From Bdellovibrionia bacterium (GTDB lineage Bacteria; Bdellovibrionota; UBA1018), in contig JBMSSC010000066.1 in NCBI GenBank assembly GCA_049424145.1, positions 1 to 14,813 on the forward strand: a stretch of 14,813 nucleotides of DNA. Reading direction: 5' to 3'. A program made the position numbers and the translations under genes. The notes beneath the pieces were generated by a model, which did not search any database, was not told the DNA's origin, and saw nothing but the letters and a program-made list of their open reading frames with translations. Shown here one piece after another: positions 683 to 14,813 of this stretch. Each line of letters begins with the position of its first letter. The stretch's first letter is position 1.

Positions 683-1342
683 TCACGGTGCTCCTGCTGC
701 GGTTCCATAGTATCGTTGAACGCTTAACACTTTTCCTTGAATTAGGTTCTCAGCATCCCAAGAGCACTCAATGGGTGAGAACTCGGGATTGGCGGGAAGG
801 AGACGAACCGAATGGCTCTTTTTTTCAAAAATCTTCACCGTGGCTTCTCCGTCAAGGAGAGCGACAACGATTTCTCCATTTTCTGCATGGCTTTGCTTTT
901 TAACAATGACATAGTCTCCCTCGAGGATTCCGGCATCCTTCATACTGAAGCCTTTGACTTTTAAGGCATAAAGTGAACTCGGTCCTTCACTGCCCCGAGA
1001 AGAAGCACTCAGGCGACTTAAGTTCGAGGGAACCGAGAGGTAACCTAACGTGTTTTCAAAGGCTTCCGTCGGTTTGCCCGCAGGAACCATTCCTAAAATG
1101 GGAATGTCCATAGAGCAGGAACGATGCGTCAGTTGCAGCCCCCGCGCTAAGCCGCGCTCTTTTTGAAGCATCCCTTTTTTCATTAATGCTCGAATGTGAT
1201 CTTGAACCGTGCCTACGGCTTCGTAACCACAGCCCTGAGCAATGTCTCGATACGTAGGCGGTCGACCCGTTCGAGCGATTTCACTTTCGATGAAGGCTAA
1301 GACCTTGGCTTGCTTGGGTGATAAAGAAGTTAAATTGGGCAT
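683..1342 (-). CDS. lexA: LexA SOS repressor
   Basis: N-terminal wHTH (LSPKQAKVLAFI...PPTYRDIA...TVQDHIRAL.KKG), Ala-Gly autocleavage site (VPAGKP), S24 peptidase Ser (GFSM) and Lys (ATVK). SD-like GGAGA lies just before the ATG on the minus strand. Confidence 0.97.
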   Translation of the reverse strand: MPNLTSLSPKQAKVLAFIESEIARTGRPPTYRDIAQGCGYEAVGTVQDHIRALMKKGMLQKERGLARGLQLTHRSCSMDIPILGMVPAGKPTEAFENTLGYLSVPSNLSRLSASSRGSEGPSSLYALKVKGFSMKDAGILEGDYVIVKKQSHAENGEIVVALLDGEATVKIFEKKSHSVRLLPANPEFSPIECSWDAENLIQGKVLSVQRYYGTAAGAP

Positions 1343-1365
1343 GTGATCTCCATCAGAGTTGAGGT

Positions 1366-1394
1366 ACCATACGCCCGTATGGGCAGTATTTCAA
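1366..1394 (-). promoter_or_regulatory. sigma70-type promoter of lexA (-35 TTGAAA, 17 bp, -10 TATGGT)
   Basis: Minus strand reads TTGAAA-tactgcccatacgggcg-TATGGT (-35 at 1394-1389, -10 at 1371-1366), ending 23 bp upstream of the lexA ATG. Confidence 0.7.
1367..1382. promoter_or_regulatory. Putative LexA operator, copy 1 (CCATACGCCCGTATGG)
   Basis: Perfect 7-bp inverted repeat CCATACG-CC-CGTATGG between divergent lexA and imuA. It overlaps the lexA -10 and spacer, and the same motif recurs at the imuB start. Confidence 0.8.
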
Positions 1395-1954
1395 ATCAAA
1401 AATGGACCGAATTTTTAGCAGATTTTCCTCGCGCAACTCCTCTCAGCTTCCGGGATTCATTGCCTTTTTCCCTTTTCTCAGGAGGGATTCCCCGAGGTGC
1501 GCTAACGGAGCTGAGCTCTCCTTTAGGCTGTGGAAAGACAGAAGTTGTCTTAAAATTCCTAGCGGAGCATCCCGAACTTTCAGTTCTTTGGATTGAGCAG
1601 GAGTTTACGTTTTATCCCAATCGGATGCTCCAAGAGCGCGTCTCCTTGAATCGAGTCTTGTTTGTGGAGTCTTCAGAAGGTCCCTGGGTTGCTCTTCAGG
1701 GCTTAAAAGCCCAGATTTTTGAAGTGGTGGTTTTGAATTCCTTCATTCTTTCAGAAACGAATTTGCGTCGTTTGCAAATTGCAACTAAACGGGCCGGAAG
1801 TATTGTTTTTCTCCTTTCAGAACAACGAACTCAGTGCGGTGCTTGGGCGATTTTACTTCAGCTTGGGGTCGAAAAGCAGGGAGGTCAAATCCAGCTTTCC
1901 CTGGAGCACTCGTTACGTTCTACTGGGCGCTTGAAGAGTCAATTTTTTCGTTGA
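1379..1954 (+). CDS. imuA: ImuA/RecA-like mutasome accessory protein
   Basis: RecA-superfamily N-terminal pattern GGIPRGALTELSSPLGCGKTE, a 'WIE...YP...VSLNRVLFV' segment and the ImuA-typical 'LRRLQIA'. It lies next to lexA with imuB/dnaE2 nearby. ATG 1379 is preferred over GTG 1343, which abuts the lexA start. Confidence 0.85.
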   Translation: MGSISNQKWTEFLADFPRATPLSFRDSLPFSLFSGGIPRGALTELSSPLGCGKTEVVLKFLAEHPELSVLWIEQEFTFYPNRMLQERVSLNRVLFVESSEGPWVALQGLKAQIFEVVVLNSFILSETNLRRLQIATKRAGSIVFLLSEQRTQCGAWAILLQLGVEKQGGQIQLSLEHSLRSTGRLKSQFFR

Positions 1955-2112
1955 AATGAAGATCGTTGAATTGAGTAGTCGTGATTTTTTTTCTGCCGGA
2001 TCTTTTTTCTGCTCAGTGCACTTGAGGAGATCTCTAGTTTGATCTACTTTTCCCAGAGTTAGCTAGGATCTCCTATCTGAGTCCTAAGCTTCATTGGATT
2101 CTGTGATTATGC

Positions 2113-2156
2113 TTTACTTAAGATTTACTTGAGGTTTACTTAAGATTTAGATGAAG
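2113..2156 (+). repeat. 11-bp tandem direct repeats (TTTACTTAAGA, TTTACTTGAGG, TTTACTTAAGA, degenerate TTTAGATGAAG)
   Basis: Read directly at 2113-2123, 2124-2134, 2135-2145 and 2146-2156 in the AT-rich intergenic region. Confidence 0.75.
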
Positions 2157-2234
2157 CGCAGAGAGCCTTTCCTTTCAGTAGTTTAAAGTAGGTTTAGTTT
2201 TTTCTTTTCAAAATCTTTTAAAAATTATTTTATA

Positions 2235-2263
2235 TTTACAAACTAAATAAAATATTTTATATT
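2235..2263 (+). promoter_or_regulatory. sigma70-type promoter of the kinase-like lipoprotein gene
   Basis: TTTACA (2235-2240), a 17-bp spacer and TATATT (2258-2263), with AT-rich UP-like sequence upstream. A perfect palindrome ATAAAATATTTTAT (2247-2260) overlaps it. Confidence 0.6.
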
Positions 2264-2319
2264 GCTGTCCTCTTCTTGATTCTTTCTTCTGAGATTGGTT
2301 TTAGATGAGGGAAAGATCC

Positions 2320-3336
2320 GTGAAAAGAAAACAGAGTCTTTTGGTGTTCCTGCTCTTCGGGCTCTTCGGGCTCTTCGGGCTCTTCGGGCTCTCCGGGTGT
2401 GTGAGTTTTTCAGACTCTCTTCACTTGAGTGACGCTACATTAGACGAGCCTGTCCGGTCGATTTGGAAGAGTCAAATTCACAGTCATTGCGGAATTGACC
2501 CTAAAAAAGTCATACAGTTTCGTAAAGAACAAACGAAGTTTGATCCTTGGCTGTCCTTTGAGGAACAGCAAGCTACGGTTCGTCAAACACAAGCTTTAGC
2601 TCAGGGCCTCGTGAAAGAAAATCGGATTCAAGAAGCTATCTGGGTCTTAGATGAGTCGCAGGATCCAAGCTTGCTCGAACAATCTAAACAACTCAAGTTG
2701 CAACTTAAAAGTCTTTTGTCTGAGGGAAGCTTAAAGCTCACTCCCCTTTCATTGGGTGGGTCAACAAAAAAAAAGGTTTTTGAAATCGATTCGATCATGA
2801 CTATTTATAAAACAGGCGTGGATGAGGGTTTGGCTTGGTCCAATGTAAACGCTGAAGCAGCGGCCTATGTGGTGGATCAGTTTTTAGGAACCAATATCGT
2901 ACCCATGACTCTGAAAAGAGAGTGGGGGTCCTATTTTGGGTCAATTCAGGTTTTAGTCAAAAATATGGAGTCCGGTTCAAAATCTCATTTGCGGGCTAAG
3001 AACTTCGGTCATCTTGCGATCCTAGATTACGTGATTGGAAATATTGATCGTAAGGAGGAAAATTTTCTATACTGGCCCTCATTGGATCGTGTGATTGCAA
3101 TTGATAACGGGTATTCTTTTCGTTTAGATTGCTCTTGCTATGAAAAAGCAACAGACCCCCTTCATTACCTCTTAGAAGAAACTCCCGCGATGCAGAGAGT
3201 GAGAAATCATATTTACGACTTGGATTTAGATCAATTGGAAGCAGCTCTGACGCCTCTTTTTCCGGGAGATTCTCAAGCGGTGAGCGTTGTCCTTGGTCGA
3301 GTCGAAGAGCTGCAGAAAATTCTAAAAAGCATTTAA
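2320..3336 (+). CDS. Predicted lipoprotein with C-terminal PI3/PI4-kinase-like (HipA/type II PI4K-like) domain
   Basis: Basic N-terminus, hydrophobic stretch and lipobox LSGC. Kinase motifs are EAAAY..D..LG...VP.T, GSIQ, catalytic loop LDYVIGNIDRKEENFL and Mg-binding AIDNGYSF. GTG 2320 has SD-like GAGGGA upstream; the alternative start is ATG 2305. Confidence 0.7.
   Translation: MKRKQSLLVFLLFGLFGLFGLFGLSGCVSFSDSLHLSDATLDEPVRSIWKSQIHSHCGIDPKKVIQFRKEQTKFDPWLSFEEQQATVRQTQALAQGLVKENRIQEAIWVLDESQDPSLLEQSKQLKLQLKSLLSEGSLKLTPLSLGGSTKKKVFEIDSIMTIYKTGVDEGLAWSNVNAEAAAYVVDQFLGTNIVPMTLKREWGSYFGSIQVLVKNMESGSKSHLRAKNFGHLAILDYVIGNIDRKEENFLYWPSLDRVIAIDNGYSFRLDCSCYEKATDPLHYLLEETPAMQRVRNHIYDLDLDQLEAALTPLFPGDSQAVSVVLGRVEELQKILKSI
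2352..2396 (+). repeat. In-frame 9-bp tandem repeat (GCTCTTCGG)x4 plus GCTCTCCGG in the signal peptide
   Basis: Four perfect units and one with a single mismatch, encoding LFG-LFG-LFG-LFG-LSG immediately before the lipobox Cys. Confidence 0.9.
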
Positions 3337-4157
3337 ACGGAATGAGGTGTGGCCTTGGGCTCCATCACGAGGGGAGGTGTCTGAGGCGTTTGGAATTCTT
3401 CACTGAGCCTCTGAAATGGCTGAGTGCTTTGATCCTTCAGCTGAACTCCCGAGAGTTGTCGCGCAAGGCTCTGTTGAACTAAGTAGGTCAACTTATGAGC
3501 AGCTGCCTCATAGGAGAGTCCATGAGGCGGTCGAATGTTGGAGATGCAGTTGCGCGAAGAGTCTTGAGTTCCGGGTAGTGGAGCATAGGTGAGATAAATT
3601 CCTAAACTATCAGGTGAGCTCAGCCCAGGTCTCTCCCCAATGAGAATGACGCTTAAACGGGCCTTCAGGTGGTAGCCCACCTCATCGGAGAGGGCAACTC
3701 GAGAGTACGGAGCCAGAACTAAGGGTGCAATCCGAAGTGGCTGCTGGAGAGTCGAGAAGAACTGCTGCAAAAATGCCACCCCATGACGATGAATCGCTAG
3801 AGCCGATAGTCCATCGGACAGTGTGATAGCCAGATCCCAAGGCTTTAGGTCCTCTGTTTGGGATAATGCCTGCAGACTTGGGATTTCATTCGGATTTAAT
3901 TTTCTTCCGAGATCCGGTCGTTTTAAAAAGTCCAAGCGGGTATTGATCTGCGAACTGACACGTAGGGTAGGCCTCTGCATTGCGTGCAACTCGGATTGAG
4001 TGAGCTGCCAGTCCCACACGGATTGCACAGCGTCTTTTGCTGCTGCATGATCCCATTTGAGTTTGAGCTGCTCGCGCGTCGAAATGGAGTTTCCCTTGCG
4101 TTCGAGTCCCACTCGAGCCGTGGTCCATGGGCTGGCTGTTGAGAGTTCTTGTGACAT
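3333..4157 (-). CDS. eutC: Ethanolamine ammonia-lyase small subunit
   Basis: Motifs TTARVGLERKG, HAAAKDAV, LKRPDLGRKL, DGLSALA, LIGERPGLSSPDSLGIYLTY and RNCISNIRP.GL. ATG 4157 is 2 bp after the eutB stop. Confidence 0.95.
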   Translation of the reverse strand: MSQELSTASPWTTARVGLERKGNSISTREQLKLKWDHAAAKDAVQSVWDWQLTQSELHAMQRPTLRVSSQINTRLDFLKRPDLGRKLNPNEIPSLQALSQTEDLKPWDLAITLSDGLSALAIHRHGVAFLQQFFSTLQQPLRIAPLVLAPYSRVALSDEVGYHLKARLSVILIGERPGLSSPDSLGIYLTYAPLPGTQDSSRNCISNIRPPHGLSYEAAAHKLTYLVQQSLARQLSGVQLKDQSTQPFQRLSEEFQTPQTPPLVMEPKATPHSV

Positions 4158-4159
4158 GA

Positions 4160-5566
4160 TTAAAGTCCAATTTGAGAGTGAATCCACTGAAGTTGAGTTT
4201 TCAGTTGAGCTTGAGTGTGAGAGGGGTCAAAAAGCTGATTTTTTTCTGAATCCCAGATTTTCATTCGCATTAACCACTCCTCAAATTCAGGGGCAGGTTT
4301 TAAGCCGAGAAGGTTTCTACAGTACAGAGCATCATGAAACGAGGTGCTTTGGTAGTTGAGCATGATATCATCAGTGCCTGGAACACCCATGATGTAATTG
4401 CATCCTGCTGATCCCAGTAAGGTGAGCAAAACATCCATGTCGTCTTGATCCGCTTCAGTGTGATTCGTGTAACAAATGTCGCATCCCATGGGTAATCCTA
4501 AGAGCTTTCCTGAGAAGTGATCTTCAAGTCCAGCTCGAATAATTTGTTTTCCATTGAACAGGTATTCTGGGCCAATGAAGCCCACCACGGTATTGACCAG
4601 TAAAGGGTCAAATTCCCGAGCCACGGCGTAGGCTCTGACTTCCATCGTTTGTGCGTCCACACCAAAATGAGCATCCGAGGAGAGAGCTGAGCCCTGGCCT
4701 GTTTCAAAATACATACACTGATTGCCCACTGTGCCTCGTTTGAGTTCAAGTGCGGCTTGATGGGCTTCACGTAAAGTCTGAAGATTAAAGCCAAACGCTT
4801 CATTGGCTTTTTGAGATCCTGCAATGGATTGAAAAACAAGATCAACTGGGTAGCCCGAGGCGATCGCATCGATGCTGCTTGTCACATGGGTTAAGACGCA
4901 GGATTGGGTGGGAATCTCAAAGCGCAGACGCATTTCATCAAAAAGTAGCAAAAGTTCTCCAATCCGCTCGGGGTGGTCAGACGCCGGGTTAATCCCAATG
5001 ACCGCATCTCCACTGCCCAATAAGAGTCCATCTAAAACGCTCACCAGCACTCCTTTGGGATCATCGGTGGGATGATTGGGTTGTAGGCGTGTGGAGAGTC
5101 TTCCTTTGAGTCCCAGGGTGTTTCGAAAAGAAGTGATGACTTCACACTTGTGGGCAACGGAGATTAAATCTTGAATGCGCATGAGTTTAGAGACGGCAGC
5201 CACCATTTCAGCAGTAAGAGCAAAGCGAATCCGTCTGAGCTGTTCAGCTCTCACTTCGTTTGATAATAGCCAGTCTCTCAGCTCTCCTACTGTGAAATGG
5301 GAAATCGAGGAAAAAAGCTCCATCGAGTGCTGTTTGAGGATTAGGCGGGTGATTTCATCGCTCTCAGGGGGGATCACAAAGTCGGTTAAAAAGTGCTTCA
5401 GAGGAACTTGAGCCAGTGCGATTTGAGCTGCGGCTCGTTGGCGTTCGGATTGAGCAGCAATTCCTGCGAGTTCATCAGCAGAACGCGCGGGAGAGGCTTT
5501 GGCTAAGAGTTCTCGTAATCCTGTGAAGGTGAATCGTTCTCCTTGGATTTGAGCGCAGTAGGGCAT
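4160..5566 (-). CDS. eutB: Ethanolamine ammonia-lyase large subunit (AdoCbl-dependent)
   Basis: Motifs RLQPNHPTDD, GDAVIGINPASD, PTQSCVLTH, YFETGQGSALS, NTVVGFIGPEYL, RAGLEDHF and DDIMLNYQSTSFHD. GGAGG SD upstream. Confidence 0.97.
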   Translation of the reverse strand: MPYCAQIQGERFTFTGLRELLAKASPARSADELAGIAAQSERQRAAAQIALAQVPLKHFLTDFVIPPESDEITRLILKQHSMELFSSISHFTVGELRDWLLSNEVRAEQLRRIRFALTAEMVAAVSKLMRIQDLISVAHKCEVITSFRNTLGLKGRLSTRLQPNHPTDDPKGVLVSVLDGLLLGSGDAVIGINPASDHPERIGELLLLFDEMRLRFEIPTQSCVLTHVTSSIDAIASGYPVDLVFQSIAGSQKANEAFGFNLQTLREAHQAALELKRGTVGNQCMYFETGQGSALSSDAHFGVDAQTMEVRAYAVAREFDPLLVNTVVGFIGPEYLFNGKQIIRAGLEDHFSGKLLGLPMGCDICYTNHTEADQDDMDVLLTLLGSAGCNYIMGVPGTDDIMLNYQSTSFHDALYCRNLLGLKPAPEFEEWLMRMKIWDSEKNQLFDPSHTQAQLKTQLQWIHSQIGL

Positions 5567-5682
5567 GATGTAACCTCCATGAGTGTGAAGTTCCTGGGGT
5601 CAAATGGGAGAGTTAGCAGTCAATGAGATTGAACTCTGAGGAATCACTCGATCAGATCACTGGATTCGTAGCTCAGTCTTTT

Positions 5683-6051
5683 TTAAGCGAATTGTTTTTT
5701 TAAGAGTTGAATAATATCGTCCGATTCGTACAGCCATTGGACTTCTCCAGAGTCTTTTTCAATTCTCAGGCAAGGAACCTGCAACATCCCTCCTTTTTCA
5801 ATCAGCTCCTGGCGATATGAGGGGTTTCCTTGTGCATCTCTGAGCTCAATTTTTAAACCCAGTTTTTTAATCACTCGTCGTACTTTGACGCAGAACGGGC
5901 AGGCCTTGAATTCATAAAGACTCAACTTTTTTGTTTGAGCATCGAGGAGAAGCTGAGCTTCCTGAGAGCGCTGGATCGGCTTGGGCTGAAAGACCCCATC
6001 TAAACCTAAAATGATTTGACCTAAGAGGCTTCGAATGAGTTTGAGGAGCAT
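5683..6051 (-). CDS. Glutaredoxin-like (GST-N/thioredoxin fold) protein
   Basis: CPFC active site, 'QVPCLRIE' cis-Pro motif and 'LYESDDII'. The family-like N-terminus begins MLLKLIRSLLGQII at ATG 6051 with AAGG upstream; the longer ORF to 6243 is probably not translated. Confidence 0.85.
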   Translation of the reverse strand: MLLKLIRSLLGQIILGLDGVFQPKPIQRSQEAQLLLDAQTKKLSLYEFKACPFCVKVRRVIKKLGLKIELRDAQGNPSYRQELIEKGGMLQVPCLRIEKDSGEVQWLYESDDIIQLLKKQFA

Positions 6052-6210
6052 GCAATTACCTTTTTGATTTTGTGGTTTTTTATCTTTTTGAGAGGAGGTT
6101 TCCTCTTCGTTTTCCACAGCTTCTCCCTCGAGCTCGGATTGAGCAAGCTCATTTTTTTCAGGGGCCAAAAGGGAATCTTCTTGATTTGTGGGAATCTCCT
6201 CCGCTAAATG

Positions 6211-6226
6211 CCATACATCTGTATGG
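6211..6226. promoter_or_regulatory. Putative LexA operator, copy 2 (CCATACATCTGTATGG)
   Basis: Perfect 7-bp inverted repeat CCATACA-TC-TGTATGG at the imuB start, with 6-bp arms identical to copy 1. Confidence 0.8.
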
Positions 6227-7725
6227 ATTTCATTCAGTCTCAACCTTGGATTGCCTGTTGTCTTTTAGAGACGAAAAAAGAACCCCACGGCGAGGCAAAA
6301 GGGCCTTTTGATGAAGCTCATCGGCCCTTTGATCTGCGCCTCTTTGCTCAGGCTTGTTATCGATGGACGCCGCAAATTGCTCTCAGAGGGGAACAAGGCG
6401 TGTTCCTTCATCTTTCGGCGTGTCGTAAGTTGTACTCAGAGACGGGTTTTAAGCGCAGAGTGGAGGCTTTAGCCAAGCGCTTTGGGGTCCGAGTTCAGAT
6501 GGGCTTTGCAACGGATGCACCGACGGCTCTTGCTTTGGCTCGAATCCAGGGCTCTGAGTTTTTAGGGTCCCATAGGCAAGCCCTGCTCTTAGATGCGTTA
6601 TTGGATTATGCAAGCCCCTTTCAATGGGATGCTGACTTGCACGCGTGTGCTCTGCACATGAGGGAGGTTTTAAAAAAGCTGGGATTGAAGACGTTGGGGG
6701 ATTTTTTAGCGCTTCCACAAGACACGCTGGCTTCGCGTTTTGGTGAGAAGGGGCTTGAGATGCGTGCTCGAGTCCATGGGCATTTTCTTTGGGCTTGGCC
6801 TGCATGGGAAGTGCCTGAGCGGATCATGGAGACTCAGGATCTCGAGGAAGAGGTGGGAGGGGAGGCTTTGCTCTTTGTGCTGAAGGGTTTGGTGGACCGA
6901 GCCATGGCGAGGCTTCGAGGCTTAGGGCAAAGAGCCGTTCGGATTGAGGTTCGAGTGCTGCTGAAGGGTTGGTCGACGGTTGAGGTTCGAAATCGAACGT
7001 GGAGCGTGGCTTTTGCTTTTCCCCAGGGGTCGACTTCATCGGTGATGCCTGTGATCCAAGAGAGAATTTTTTCAGATCTTCAGGCGTCGTCTCTGTCGGC
7101 TCCTCTGGAGAGAGTGGAGTTGGAGGTCCAAGAGGGGGTGCCTGGAAATCAGGCGCAAAAGAATTTTTTCAGTCAACAAGAAGAAGAGCAGGAGCGCTGG
7201 GAGGCTTGGGTCAATCGCTTGGTGGTTCGATTGGGAAAGGAGCATGTGTTTTTGGCGGCTCCGGTGAATCGGTACTTGCCTGAGGGGGCATGGGGGAAGG
7301 AAGAGGGCTTTTCTTCATGGAATTTGAGGAACTTCCATGAGGGCAGGGGGGTGAAGAATGCAGCAGACCCGTTTGAGCAGGCCAGCGGATCCGTAGCAGC
7401 AGAAGAAAAGAATCAAGAAACAGGGCAAGGCCTGAGCTCGGAGACTCGCAGGGTGATTGGGCTGAGACCCACTCGGGTTTTAAAAAAGCCACAGCCCTTT
7501 CGTCTTTCACATCCTCATCAGATCCAAGTGCAGGGGAAGACATGGAAGGCTCGAAAGTGGTCCGCGCTGGAGCGCATTGCAGGTGAGTGGTGGAGGGATC
7601 CTCAAATGCAAGGTTTTCACAGGGACTACTATCAAGTGAGCACGGAAACGGGAGAGGAGCTTTGGGTTTTTTTGGATCGAAACCAAAATCCTCCGGTTTT
7701 TTTTCTCCATGGCTACTTTGATTGA
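6223..7725 (+). CDS. imuB: ImuB, catalytically inactive Y-family polymerase homolog
   Basis: Motifs 'RWTPQIAL', 'LGLKTLGDFLALP...LASRFG', 'LRPTRVLKKPQP', 'ERIAGEWW...RDYY' and C-terminal 'FLHGYFD'. Lies directly upstream of dnaE2. Start is ATG 6223 (in the operator) or ATG 6208. Confidence 0.92.
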   Translation: MDFIQSQPWIACCLLETKKEPHGEAKGPFDEAHRPFDLRLFAQACYRWTPQIALRGEQGVFLHLSACRKLYSETGFKRRVEALAKRFGVRVQMGFATDAPTALALARIQGSEFLGSHRQALLLDALLDYASPFQWDADLHACALHMREVLKKLGLKTLGDFLALPQDTLASRFGEKGLEMRARVHGHFLWAWPAWEVPERIMETQDLEEEVGGEALLFVLKGLVDRAMARLRGLGQRAVRIEVRVLLKGWSTVEVRNRTWSVAFAFPQGSTSSVMPVIQERIFSDLQASSLSAPLERVELEVQEGVPGNQAQKNFFSQQEEEQERWEAWVNRLVVRLGKEHVFLAAPVNRYLPEGAWGKEEGFSSWNLRNFHEGRGVKNAADPFEQASGSVAAEEKNQETGQGLSSETRRVIGLRPTRVLKKPQPFRLSHPHQIQVQGKTWKARKWSALERIAGEWWRDPQMQGFHRDYYQVSTETGEELWVFLDRNQNPPVFFLHGYFD

Positions 7726-7741: not shown

Positions 7742-10700
7742 ATGTATGCCGAGCTGATGTGTCGAACGCACTATTCGTTTTTAAAGGGAGCCTCAAGTCC
7801 TCAGGAAATGGTCCAAAGGGCCTCAGAACTTGGGCTTTCTGCCCTCGCCATCACGGATCGAAATGGGGTGTATGGAATCCCAAAGGCGGTACAAGAGAGT
7901 CGCTTGCATCGGGGGCTTAAGCTGATTGTGGGAGCCGAGTTAACGCTGGAAAATCCCCTGGTTCAGAACTCCAGTTTCATTCTCCCGCTTTTGGCTAAGA
8001 ATCGAGCAGGTTACGCTCTTTTGTGTCGGCTCCTCACGGCCAGTCATCAGAAAAAATCAGAGGCCCGCTTGTTATGGGAGCCATTTTTGGAGCTCATGAA
8101 CAGATCTGAGCGCTCAGGGCTTGTGGCTCTCCTTCCGGTTCCGGGGCCAGCGCTGCCTCAATCCAGAGAGCTTCCTTATTCTGAGTTAAAGCAGGTGTTT
8201 GAGCAGAATCTGGCTCTGGCTTTGTCCCGAGTCTTGGATGGAGGTGACTCCTTTCGAACGCAGTTGGCCTTGGACTTAAAACGTCGCCATGGATTTCCTC
8301 TTTTAGCGACGAATGACGTGCATTTTCATGTTCCCCAACGAAAGCGACTCCAAGACACATTGACTGCAATTGGGCAAAACTGCTCTTTAGATGAAGTGGG
8401 TCATGAGGTATTCTCCAACTCCGAGCGCTACCTCAAATCAGCAGCGCAGATGCAGATCCTGTTTCAGGACTTACCTGAGGCTTTAGAGCAGACTCAAAAG
8501 GTGGCCTCTCAGTGTGAGTTTTCTCTCTCCGAGTTGAAGTACACCTATCCCTCCGAATGGATTCCTCAAGGCGAAACGGCACAAAGTTACTTGGAAAAAC
8601 TCACCTGGCAAGGTGCGCAGAATCGCTATCCTTGTGGCGTGCCTGATGACGTTTCCGCGCAGCTAGAACATGAGTTGAGACTCATTGAGCAATTGGAGTT
8701 TTCACACTACTTTCTCACTCTTTGGGAAATCGTGGAGTTTGCGCAACGAAAAAAAATCCTGTTTCAAGGCAGAGGTTCAGCTGCAAACTCAGTGGTTTGT
8801 TATTGTTTAGCAATCACGGCTATTGATCCCGTTCGAATGAACCTTCTTTTTGAACGGTTCATTTCAGCAGAGCGTGGGGAGCCTCCCGATATTGATGTGG
8901 ACTTTGAGCATGAGCGTCGAGAAGAGGTGATTCAGCATATTTATGAAAAGTATGGACGTCACCGAGCCGGTATGGTCTCTGCGGTGATCACTTATCGTAC
9001 GAAGTCGGCGCTTCGGGATGTTAAAAAAGTTTTAGGTGAAAAGAGGGTTCAAGAGCACCCGGAAGTAGCAGCGGCGTTAGCTCAAGAACTTCAAGGCGTG
9101 CCTCGCCACCTCTCCATTCACTCAGGAGGTTTTACCCTATCGGCCACTCCCATCATTGAGATCGTCCCTGTGGAGCCTGCTCGCATGCCCGGACGAAGTA
9201 TCATTCAATGGGATAAGGAAGATTTACAGATCGTGGGCTTATTAAAAGTCGACATCCTTGCCTTAGGCATGCTCTCGGCCCTTCGAAAAACCTTAGAGCA
9301 AGTGCATCCTCCGCTCACTCTAGCCAGCATCCCTCCAGAGGATCCCAAAACCTATGAGATGATTCGACGAGCAGAGACTGTAGGGGTTTTTCAAATTGAG
9401 TCTCGTGCTCAGATGAGCATGTTAAAAAGGCTTTTACCCGAGACCTTTTATGACCTCGTGGTTCAAGTGGCCATCGTTCGCCCTGGACCCATTCAAGGAC
9501 AGATGGTGCACCCGTATTTAAGAAGACGTCGGGGTTTGCAAAGCGCAGAGAGTCCAGATCCTAGGCTGGAGCCCATTTTAAACAGGACGCTAGGGGTGCC
9601 CTTGTTTCAAGAGCAAATCATGAAGATTGCGATGGTGATGGCTGATTTTACTCCTGGAGAAGCTGATCAGCTCAGGCGAGCCATTGGGGCTTGGAAATCC
9701 ACTGGCTCGGTGGATTCCATTGGAAGAAGGCTGATGCAAGGGCTTTTACGTAAGGGCCTAAGCGAGCAGTTTGTGCAGCAGATCTTTCAGCAGATCCAAG
9801 GATTTGCTGAGTATGGGTTTCCTGAGTCTCACGCCGCCTCGTTTGCTCTATTGGCCTATGCTTCAGCGTATTTGAAGTGTCACTATCCGGCTCAGTTTAC
9901 GTGCGCGTTGTTGAATTCTCAGCCCATGGGGTTTTATTCCTCCTCCACGCTTGTTGAGGAAGTGAAGCGCCAGCGGGTTCGGGTTTTCTCTGTTCATCCC
10001 AATGATTCCGAGTGGGATTGTACGGTTCATCAGGGCTCGGTGCAGTTGGGGTGGCGCATGCTTCAAGGGTTAACCCAAGCTCAGGGAGAGGGGATTGTTC
10101 AAGCCAGGCGCTTAAGAGCGTTTGAAAGCTTATTGGATTTTGTTTTAAGAACGAATCTCTCCGTTCGTCTTCTGAATCGCTTGGCCTGGGGAAATGCGTT
10201 TTCTTGCTTTGGGCTCACTCAGCGGCAAGCCCTGTGGGAAATTCTGAGCCTCCGAGGTCTGAGAAATCAGGGAGAAAGTAATTTTCAGCGGCCTGAGTTC
10301 AAAGAAGTGCAGTTGAGTCTTTTTCCTTTTTTTCGCTCCAATCACAATTCCTCTTTTCTTCCATTTCAACCCCTGAGTCCCTATGAAGCCATCAGTTCAG
10401 ATCATGAAGCCTATCAACTCTCTGTTCAAGGGCACCCTATGTGGGCATTGAGACAAGAGCCTAGCTGGAGAAGGAAACTGCCAAAAACCACCACACAGAG
10501 CTTCAGGCAGGCTGTGAGTTCGTCTTGGGTTTCCTTAGCTGGGTTGATCATCATTCGGCAAAGACCTCCGAGCGCAAAAGGCACGATGTTTGCGACTTTA
10601 GAAGACGAGTGGGGGTTTGCGGATTTGATTTTTTCGCTCCAGGTGTTTGAAAAGTATCGTGTTTTACTCGAGACTACGGCTTTTCTGAGGGTTCATGGTT

Positions 10701-10813
10701 TCGTCCAGCGCTCAGAGAACCTCAGGAGTCTTCAAGTCCGAAAAGCCTCCCCTCTTTTTGAGGAAGAAGAGCAGAGCTGCGATTTTGCTTCTTTGTCTAT
10801 GCCTTCCTGTTGA
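7742..10813 (+). CDS. dnaE2: Error-prone DNA polymerase III alpha-like DnaE2 (ImuC)
   Basis: PHP start YAELMCRTHYSFLKGASSP, QGRGSAANS, catalytic PPDIDVDFEHERREEVIQ and KVDILALGML, PRHLSIHSGG, YGFPESHAASFA, LLNSQPMGFY and OB-fold RQRPPSAKG...LEDEWG. About 1020 aa, with no C-terminal tau-binding extension. Confidence 0.97.
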   Translation: MYAELMCRTHYSFLKGASSPQEMVQRASELGLSALAITDRNGVYGIPKAVQESRLHRGLKLIVGAELTLENPLVQNSSFILPLLAKNRAGYALLCRLLTASHQKKSEARLLWEPFLELMNRSERSGLVALLPVPGPALPQSRELPYSELKQVFEQNLALALSRVLDGGDSFRTQLALDLKRRHGFPLLATNDVHFHVPQRKRLQDTLTAIGQNCSLDEVGHEVFSNSERYLKSAAQMQILFQDLPEALEQTQKVASQCEFSLSELKYTYPSEWIPQGETAQSYLEKLTWQGAQNRYPCGVPDDVSAQLEHELRLIEQLEFSHYFLTLWEIVEFAQRKKILFQGRGSAANSVVCYCLAITAIDPVRMNLLFERFISAERGEPPDIDVDFEHERREEVIQHIYEKYGRHRAGMVSAVITYRTKSALRDVKKVLGEKRVQEHPEVAAALAQELQGVPRHLSIHSGGFTLSATPIIEIVPVEPARMPGRSIIQWDKEDLQIVGLLKVDILALGMLSALRKTLEQVHPPLTLASIPPEDPKTYEMIRRAETVGVFQIESRAQMSMLKRLLPETFYDLVVQVAIVRPGPIQGQMVHPYLRRRRGLQSAESPDPRLEPILNRTLGVPLFQEQIMKIAMVMADFTPGEADQLRRAIGAWKSTGSVDSIGRRLMQGLLRKGLSEQFVQQIFQQIQGFAEYGFPESHAASFALLAYASAYLKCHYPAQFTCALLNSQPMGFYSSSTLVEEVKRQRVRVFSVHPNDSEWDCTVHQGSVQLGWRMLQGLTQAQGEGIVQARRLRAFESLLDFVLRTNLSVRLLNRLAWGNAFSCFGLTQRQALWEILSLRGLRNQGESNFQRPEFKEVQLSLFPFFRSNHNSSFLPFQPLSPYEAISSDHEAYQLSVQGHPMWALRQEPSWRRKLPKTTTQSFRQAVSSSWVSLAGLIIIRQRPPSAKGTMFATLEDEWGFADLIFSLQVFEKYRVLLETTAFLRVHGFVQRSENLRSLQVRKASPLFEEEEQSCDFASLSMPSC

Positions 10814-14136: not shown

Positions 14137-14228
<92 letters not shown>

Positions 14229-14405
14229 GTCCAAGATTTGTTTTCAGTTCAAGAAGTGAAAACAAAGAACTGGGGCAATCCGTAAATCCCATTGGTCCAG
14301 TTATCAAAAATACGATTCCCATAAACCTTCAGGCTGATTCTTCACCCTTGGAAAAGGGTCGGGAGGGACTCATGGCTCTGAAGTTGGGGTGATGAGGGCT
14401 CATCC

Positions 14406-14667
14406 ATGCGCTATGAAAACAAAAACCCGTCCATCGATGAGCTGAACAGTCAGGTCCCTGTTGTGATCACGGGCACGCAGTACGTTCCACCTCCGGCTTC
14501 TCAGGTTCCATCTTTGATGAAGAAATTCATCAAACAGCTTCCAGCCTTAAGGAAAAAACTTCACCCCGTCGATTTTGTCGCTCAAGTTCATCTTCGTTTG
14601 GTTCATATTCATCCGTTTGTCGATGGCAACGGTCGCACTGCGCGTCTTTTGATGAACCTTGCTTTAT
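14406..14667 (+). pseudogene. Fic-domain protein remnant, truncated at both ends
   Basis: Intact Fic motif HPFVDGNGRTAR and flap 'VVITGTQYVPP'. The N-terminal helices and the usual G.YR before the flap are missing. Homology ends at LMNLAL, exactly where the IS left end begins. Confidence 0.75.
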
Positions 14668-14813
14668 CAAACATGCCGTAAAACCTCCTGGTTTAGCAGG
14701 AGGATATAAGGCATCCGAACTTTAGTTCGGCGTTCCTTTTTTGCTCCAGGTAAGCTAAATAGAGTTTTCGTTCTTTGAAATTCAGATATACGGTTCGAGC
14801 ACCAAAAAACATC
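14668..14813 (+). mobile_element. Left end of an IS200/IS605-family (IS608-like) element; continues beyond the window
   Basis: Layout TTAT|CAAACATGCCGT-AAAA-CCTCCTG-GTTTAG-CAGGAGG-ATATAAGGC: target tetranucleotide, guide tetranucleotide and subterminal hairpin (14684-14703), as in the IS608 left end. No transposase ORF lies within the window. Confidence 0.75.

Follow-up and report, generated by a model that had tools for sequence, protein, structure and literature searches.

Which operator serves LexA in the uncultured Bdellovibrionota, and how could a mutasome that has been broken in two stay under its control? Both questions arise from a 14,813-nucleotide contig of a Bdellovibrionia bacterium (JBMSSC010000066.1, assembly GCA_049424145.1; hereafter the window), in which a perfect palindrome, CCATAC-N4-GTATGG, lies between the divergent genes lexA and imuA, and a second one lies at the start of imuB-dnaE2, beyond a 4.3-kb insert. 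LexA binds its operators as a dimer and releases them after RecA-induced self-cleavage. An initial annotation of the window proposed that the palindrome is a new, lineage-specific LexA box through which both halves of a split mutasome are controlled. We consider it very probable, from comparative genomics, that CCATAC-N4-GTATGG is the operator of the window LexA, and likely that LexA proteins whose recognition helix reads A[VI]GT[VI]QDH use it as their SOS operator in several uncultured Bdellovibrionota families. The lineage-specific character of the box is supported by its presence at lexA in 14/14 close orthologues, its absence with other LexA types and its position before canonical SOS genes in one family, f16.

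The window comes from genome G000 (2.69 Mb, 193 contigs, 95% complete). With 60 relatives it forms a close set of 61 genomes, and a phylum set holds 251; labels beginning with G, L, C and f denote genomes, loci, contigs and families, respectively. Exact CCATAC-N4-GTATGG was searched beside a control, the reversed pattern of the motif. A position weight matrix (PWM), built from the lexA sites of 14 relatives with the window genome left out, scores at least 12 in 6/5497 windows.

Two boxes in one genome

Both palindromes lie where the initial annotation had placed them (Table 1), and they are indeed the sole copies in the window: no other match appears even at 2 mismatches, and shuffled sequence gives a mean of 0.12 copies, with two or more in 0/200 shuffles. 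Exact copies in the whole 2.69 Mb also number two, at lexA/imuA and at imuB; two more sites are found at one mismatch, and the exact arms with other spacer lengths (0–10 nt) occur nowhere in the genome. The PWM places box 2 first among 2.69 M positions (score 26.4) and box 1 second (18.9), followed by C97:5953 (16.5), which falls within a predicted open reading frame (ORF) start, and by a site upstream of recA (14.9).

Table 1 Features of the window (positions count from its first letter)
Feature	Position	Strand	Remarks
lexA	683-1342	-	219 aa; PF01726 and PF00717; TIGR00498 166 bits against a cut-off of 111
Predicted imuA -10, TACCAT	1365-1370	+	Left arm of box 1 plus flank; poor -35; predicted from sequence and from the pattern across relatives
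Predicted lexA promoter	1366-1394	-	-35 TTGAAA (1394-1389), 17 nt, -10 TATGGT (1371-1366), overlapped by box 1; consensus match only
Box 1, CCATAC-GCCC-GTATGG, CCATACGCCCGTATGG	1367-1382		Predicted LexA operator common to divergent lexA and imuA; PWM rank 2 in genome
imuA-like gene	1379-1954	+	NF033429 E 1e-16, 61 bits, below cut-off of 150; likely start ATG in right arm of box 1, also where the alignment with the closest relative begins
Insert	1955-6210		4.3 kb splitting the cassette; not between imuA and imuB in 11 relatives
PI3/4-kinase-like gene	2305-3336	+	In insert
eutC	3333-4187	-	In insert
eutB	4160-5566	-	In insert
Glutaredoxin gene (grx)	5683-6051	-	In insert
Box 2, CCATAC-ATCT-GTATGG, CCATACATCTGTATGG	6211-6226		Predicted operator for LexA control of imuB-dnaE2; lies in the 171 bp that separate the divergent grx and imuB
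imuB-like gene	6223-7725	+	Diverged Y-family polymerase homologue; likely start ATG in right arm of box 2 by N-terminal alignment
dnaE2 (imuC)	7742-10813	+	Error-prone polymerase; PRK05672 1171 bits against a cut-off of 939

The motif follows one LexA type

The exact motif occurs in 14/61 genomes of the close set, the same 14 that carry an AVGTVQDH-type LexA, and in 0/47 of the others, ten of which gave no LexA match. It is present once per genome in these 14, except for the two copies in the window genome; the reversed control is found in 3/61. Their LexA proteins (E < 1e-59, identity 53–70%) group in one clade with 100/100 support, in which helix 3 reads A[VI]GT[VI]QDH and the linker is short. 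At 30 lexA loci, CCATAC-N4-GTATGG lies upstream in 14/14 of the clade and ATAC-N4-GTAT in 0/16 of the others. In other LexA types of the same order, direct repeats occupy this place, by eye: CTTACG-N5-CTTACG where helix 3 reads SLGTVQ[ND]Y, and TGTTCG-N5-TGTTCG where it reads SxATxQxH.

The window lexA contains the only match to the LexA DNA-binding domain in its genome, and its product has the expected architecture, an N-terminal winged-helix domain (PF01726, E 2e-14) and an S24 peptidase domain (PF00717, E 1e-28). A88-G89, S133 and K170 are invariant in 14 orthologues and align with solved LexA. In a structure model with a mean pLDDT of 67, there are helices at residues 9–25, 31–38 and 43–55 and a two-strand wing; the third helix is the recognition helix. 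This region is atypical, as the initial annotation had remarked, with GYEAVGTVQDH in place of GFRSPNAAEEH in the closest solved LexA. Close relatives of this LexA are labelled Bdellovibrionota metagenome bins at NCBI, with no cultured species among the matches listed.

Helix and box also vary together beyond the clade. Within one family, helix AVG[TS]VQGY pairs with ACATAC-N4-GTATG[TC] (7 genomes, one genus), and helix TVATVYEH of the same family pairs with CCGTAC-N4-GTACGG (1 genome). At metagenome loci, by eye, STGTxRD[HY] occurs with CCACAC-N4-GTGTGG, and AVQ[ST]ARxH with CAGAC-N4-GT[CA]TG. Such variation of the motif with helix 3, together with its exact distribution in the close set (14/14 against 0/47), makes it very unlikely that the palindrome is bound by another DNA-damage regulator and that LexA uses a different site, an explanation that draws on LexA binding being deduced here and on G046 and G259 carrying more than one LexA type. 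The three promoter regions concerned (lexA/imuA, imuB and recA) contain, moreover, none of seven LexA patterns that are known or were observed, with 0 matches for each of the six described ones, GAAC-N4-GTTC, GTTC-N7-GTTC, TTAC-N3-GTAA, CTGT-N8-ACAG, GGTT-N10-AACC and GTAC-N4-GTRC.

The diversity of LexA boxes in these bacteria is wide. At least four box types occur in one order (L013-L030, L259-L271): the ATAC palindrome and direct repeats of CTTACG, TGTTCG and GTACG; TGTAC direct repeats are seen in f13. Two LexA types are found in G046, and three LexA domains in G259. More candidate boxes sort by helix type at metagenome lexA loci L081-L153, namely CCACAC-N4-GTGTGG, CAGAC-N4-GTCTG, CCGTAC-N4-GTACGG, CTGAA[AC]-N4-[TG]TTCAG and CCATAC-N4-GTATAG. 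Because palindromic and direct-repeat LexA types coexist in one family, and even in one genome, they provide close pairs for studying changes in LexA specificity.

Distribution and predicted regulon across the phylum

Over the phylum set, 64/251 genomes contain the exact motif, concentrated in five families, and 13/251 contain the control, always as a single copy. The motif is rich in f16 (14/20 genomes), f18 (22/34), f23 (11/14) and f28 (2/4), is found in f1 (4/22, plus the window genome) and f11 (1/1), and is poor in f21 (1/26), f22 (5/51) and f25 (2/16). Nine exact matches in f21, f22, f25 and f32 adjoin no SOS gene and were taken as chance, as was an exact match in G259.

Sixty motif loci were examined, with 51 adjoining ORFs compared with Pfam and 18 with NCBIfam. 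Most boxes of f18 and f28 lie upstream of lexA. Those of f16 lie upstream of recA (3 loci), dinB (3), umuD (1) and a PA0069 radical SAM gene (1), and also of HNH genes (5) and Y1-transposase-like genes (6); an rSAM-UDG gene follows the box in 4 loci, 1 in f16 and 3 in f18. The motif recurs before canonical SOS-type genes, comprising recA, dinB, umuD, rSAM-UDG, imuA, imuB and dnaE2. In some families the regulon of this box appears to be minimal, with lexA and the mutasome, and in f16 it appears fuller, with recA, dinB, umuD and rSAM-UDG, so that regulon growth can be followed. If the assignment is true, it defines an SOS regulon for a large uncultured part of Bdellovibrionota, for which the B. 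bacteriovorus box is the only one found in the accessible portions of the literature.

As a side observation, repeated genes for Y1/IS200-like transposases, and HNH genes of which two match IscB weakly, begin at a box in L203-L229 of f16, many of them near contig ends, and G122, also of f16, holds 19 exact boxes. These genes are possibly mobile elements under SOS control.

In the window genome, the recA site (G000:C11:6543-6558, CCATATCTTTGTATGG) has one mismatch and is intergenic, just after pgpA and 190 bp before the recA ATG. The 14 close genomes contain 16 one-mismatch sites against 22 for the control pattern, and none of 14 such sites in the relatives is tied to a known SOS gene; the one at L169 of G019 is intergenic, before a 434-aa ORF without a Pfam or NCBIfam family. 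Most genomes of the window clade resemble B. bacteriovorus, in which, to go by the title of the paper on its LexA, canonical SOS genes are reportedly not LexA-repressed.

Among 143 LexA entries, the box accompanies 60/63 with an A[VI]GT[VI]QDH-type helix against 3/80 without, counts that are inflated because kin are not independent, 15 loci were found via the motif and the helix pattern was set post hoc. This inflation is the first of several points that count against LexA control by the palindrome or narrow its reach. Independent pairs on well-supported branches number only 3 (sign test p=0.25, underpowered). For three helix-bearing LexAs there is no box that fits the strict motif: in G161 and G071 it is degenerate (CCGTAA-N4-GTATGG), and at L111 there is no motif in 815 nt. 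Among the SOS genes that the initial annotation named for a genome-wide scan, recA of the window genome has the one-mismatch site and uvrA has no site. By PWM, the recA upstream site is present in 8/12 f16 genomes and lacking in f18, f23 and f28 (0/13); it is present in 1/12 genomes of the window clade, the window genome alone, where it is possibly a recent gain. Finally, ImuA and ImuB score below curated cut-offs, and box 2 offers no convincing -35/-10 for imuB.

Anatomy of the box

The 88 distinct sites have the consensus aTACCATACAwwTGTATGGTAt. The initial annotation read the inner spacer bases as co-varying to preserve symmetry, a claim that the larger sample does not support: first and last spacer bases are complementary in 63/88 sites against 59.6 after shuffling (p=0.12), and the pairs G..T/A..C number 14 against 3 for G..C. 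The spacer pattern is a preference for A and T at its ends, not co-variation.

Box 1 overlaps the -10 and spacer of a promoter-like lexA sequence, TTGAAA-17-TATGGT, as the initial annotation had described; the match is to consensus only and is weak evidence alone, because the region yields 8 such sites against 5.0 in shuffles. A feature absent from that annotation is that the likely start codons of imuA (ATG 1379) and imuB (ATG 6223) lie within the right arms of boxes 1 and 2. The right-arm ATG is in frame with the next gene in 45/86 box–gene pairs. An arm ATG that is both in frame and open accompanies 15/17 left arms that provide a TAnnnT hexamer with TTG 16–18 nt upstream, against 27/69 (kin are not independent); with TTG 0–7 nt ahead of the box, a minority of cases, 9/38, have one. 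These counts suggest two promoter layouts, one with the box in the spacer and one with the box as both the -10 and the start of a near-leaderless message. The predicted lexA promoter of the window follows the box-in-spacer layout, and imuA and imuB probably start at the arm ATG.

The -10-like hexamers in the arms and the in-frame ATG of 45/86 pairs would also suit a mere compact bidirectional promoter (-10 TACCAT/TATGGT plus start codon) conserved without a repressor, and a short RNA hairpin can form from the six perfect pairs around a 4-nt loop (z -1.96 and -1.43). We regard either alternative as extremely unlikely, given that the arm sequence is fixed while the spacer varies, that the element occurs at SOS-type genes alone and nowhere else in the genome, that at recA it lies 100–280 nt upstream and supplies no start codon, and that it has no Rfam match.

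Going beyond LexA control as such, we tentatively propose that the box may combine three elements, a LexA operator, a -10 hexamer TACCAT (left arm and flank) and a start codon GT-ATG-G (right arm), in near-leaderless SOS transcripts, and that it may also belong to a natural series of helix-3/box pairs, several of them in one order, which comprises ATAC, GTAC, ACAC and AGAC palindromes and TTAC, GTAC and GTTC direct repeats. If true, such a series would open the LexA recognition code and the palindrome-to-direct-repeat switch to helix and linker swaps.

A split cassette and a second box

The imuA-imuB-dnaE2 genes are contiguous in 11/13 close relatives; the contigs of the other two end too early. 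A single box lies between divergent lexA and imuA in 10 of these 11, and in the eleventh, G007, lexA is 0.9 kb away and a second, degenerate box precedes imuA; each G007 piece is likewise counted as having a box. The G007 imuB was matched as two pieces (L060:5116-6535), a possible frameshift. Because close relatives have the intact cassette with one box, we infer that the 4.3-kb insert is derived and that box 2 was gained. An origin of box 2 by duplication of the region around box 1 was considered and rejected: the flanks are no more alike than shuffled sequence (p 0.63 and 0.55), and upstream of box 2 there is no remnant of imuA.

The junction of grx, box 2 and imuB is bridged by contigs of two other studies, in which the variants listed flank both boxes and none falls inside, at low depth. 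Across 20 further loci, detached pieces of the cassette each have a box, on imuA-lexA and on imuB, in 6/6 f16 genomes and in G084, G113, G135 and G200; the six f16 splits probably trace to one event. The window ImuB and the f16 imuB-like gene are linked by a profile search (E 1e-9), a direct BLASTP comparison being not significant. At L309 (G200:C11, f18), imuA-imuB-dnaE2 scores far above other f18 genomes against window-clade profiles, a possible transfer.

Box 2 might be non-functional, or serve the divergent grx-eutBC instead of imuB-dnaE2, with box 1 a true operator. No clear imuB promoter is seen, no relative in the window clade has a box at imuB, and the insert genes begin 160 bp away on the opposite strand. 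Set against these are its rank as the best-scoring site in the genome, its overlap with the imuB start, its freedom from the listed variants of two other studies' contigs though its flanks vary, and the boxed detached imuB of 6/6 f16 genomes, which together make this possibility unlikely. The claim of a box on each half of a split mutasome has comparative support, and its novelty was overstated: the accessible part of PMC3901139 already describes the box-per-piece layout.

On the preferred reading of CCATAC-N4-GTATGG as a LexA operator, a LexA dimer on box 1 would block both divergent promoters, of lexA and imuA, LexA on box 2 would silence imuB-dnaE2, and LexA would bind more weakly before recA. 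DNA damage would trigger RecA-driven self-cleavage of LexA at Ala88-Gly89 by Ser133/Lys170 and free the boxes, so that ImuA, ImuB and DnaE2 would be made together, with lexA and perhaps recA co-induced. The ancestral unit of the family would have been a single box between lexA and imuA-imuB-dnaE2, read divergently. After the insert had detached imuB-dnaE2, SOS control of this part would have been maintained through the second box.

Relation to described LexA boxes

The E. coli LexA box is CTGT-N8-ACAG, and GTAC-N4-GTRC is the box of Pseudomonas and Xanthomonas LexA2 and of cyanobacteria. The latter resembles the window box in its N4 palindrome and TAC core, and differs from it in the arms: that of the window box, CCATAC, has A where the other has G before TAC, and a CC/GG pair is added. 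The window lexA is divergent from imuA, whereas lexA is the first operon gene in GTAC-N4-GTRC systems; control of lexA with imuA-imuB-dnaE2 (PMC3901139, accessible part) would be common to both. The Firmicutes and Actinobacteria box GAAC-N4-GTTC, as given in the available text of PMC3323433, has the same spacer geometry and A...T spacer preference as the window motif, but each arm differs from it at two of the four core positions, and the helix at one locus of this type (L093) is SSSTVHGH, against AVGTVQDH in the window.

Portions of PMC8565304 and PMC3323433 give TTAC-N3-GTAA for B. bacteriovorus, and the former also describes GGTT-N10-AACC and GTTC-N7-GTTC. The B. bacteriovorus box comes from the same phylum as the window box and shares its TAC core, but has N3 rather than N4 and different arms. 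The lexA promoters with TTAC-N3-GTAA (3/5 such f21 loci, by eye) go with helix SFNSVQNY, a longer protein and another branch than the window LexA. The Balneolaeota LexA box is a direct repeat, TTACACATATTTTWTACATA, inferred from lexA upstream regions, with a regulon of recA, translesion synthesis (TLS) polymerases and a radical SAM gene, according to the accessible text of PMC7739468. Both its derivation from lexA upstream regions and this regulon are shared with window-type boxes; as a direct repeat, it resembles another Bdellovibrionota LexA type, not the window palindrome. Balneolaeota-like period-11 direct repeats, TTAC[AG]-N6-TTAC[AG], are seen in lexA promoters of f21, f22, f25, f29, f31 and f32 (L272-L291), and TTAC-N3-GTAA overlaps such a repeat in 3/5 of its f21 loci, by eye, so that the palindrome published for Bdellovibrio may belong to a direct-repeat operator.

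Split imuABC cassettes in which every locus has an SOS box of its own are described, for M. tuberculosis among others, in the accessible part of PMC3901139. The window cassette shares with them a LexA box for each detached piece, and differs in that its break lies between imuA and imuB, is recent (11 relatives being intact) and involves a probably new motif. To the extent of that text, box-per-piece split cassettes are already known, and the motif itself is the part that is probably new.

We judge the motif to be probably new to science. A literature text search for its spellings, with figure logos, bioRxiv supplements, CollecTF and RegPrecise outside the search, found no paper containing it, and a search for LexA, Bdellovibrionota and the SOS response found no paper. 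In the accessible portions of PMC13148647 and PMC3108266 there is no further LexA motif. Table S2 of PMC8565304 (2021) covers 44 LexAs whose sites are known, without giving motifs, and has B. bacteriovorus as the sole member of the phylum among 34/44 rows. Because new LexA boxes appear regularly, the motif alone is a solid, not a startling, addition.

Other features of the window

In a mutasome, ImuA is a RecA-like accessory protein, and ImuB is a Y-family homologue without catalytic residues. The imuA-like gene precedes imuB in 11 relatives. The imuB-like gene has no match to the IMS catalytic domain, only remote similarity to Pol IV, and a fixed position before dnaE2; a profile of 11 orthologues matches DNA polymerase IV 7yll (E 7.7e-6), and IMS_C is found in 2/11 members. 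Neither dinB/IMS nor rSAM-UDG was found in the window genome, which is 95% complete, and in a plasmid search the best match was 40%.

An open, acidic 65-codon frame (6052-6243, minus strand) runs upstream of the glutaredoxin gene across box 2 and continues into that gene; two variants fall on its third codon positions, and the likely glutaredoxin start is still ATG 6051. A 9-bp tandem repeat lies at the start of the kinase-like gene (2352-2395), and 27 bp of it are missing in one other run. The contig start (1-175) is GC-richer by eye and similarity to the DTW gene is lost there, possibly a mis-joined contig end. Near the other end (14137-14681), a tRNA-Ser(GGA) is followed by a short Fic-domain fragment, an arrangement that resembles an integration site.

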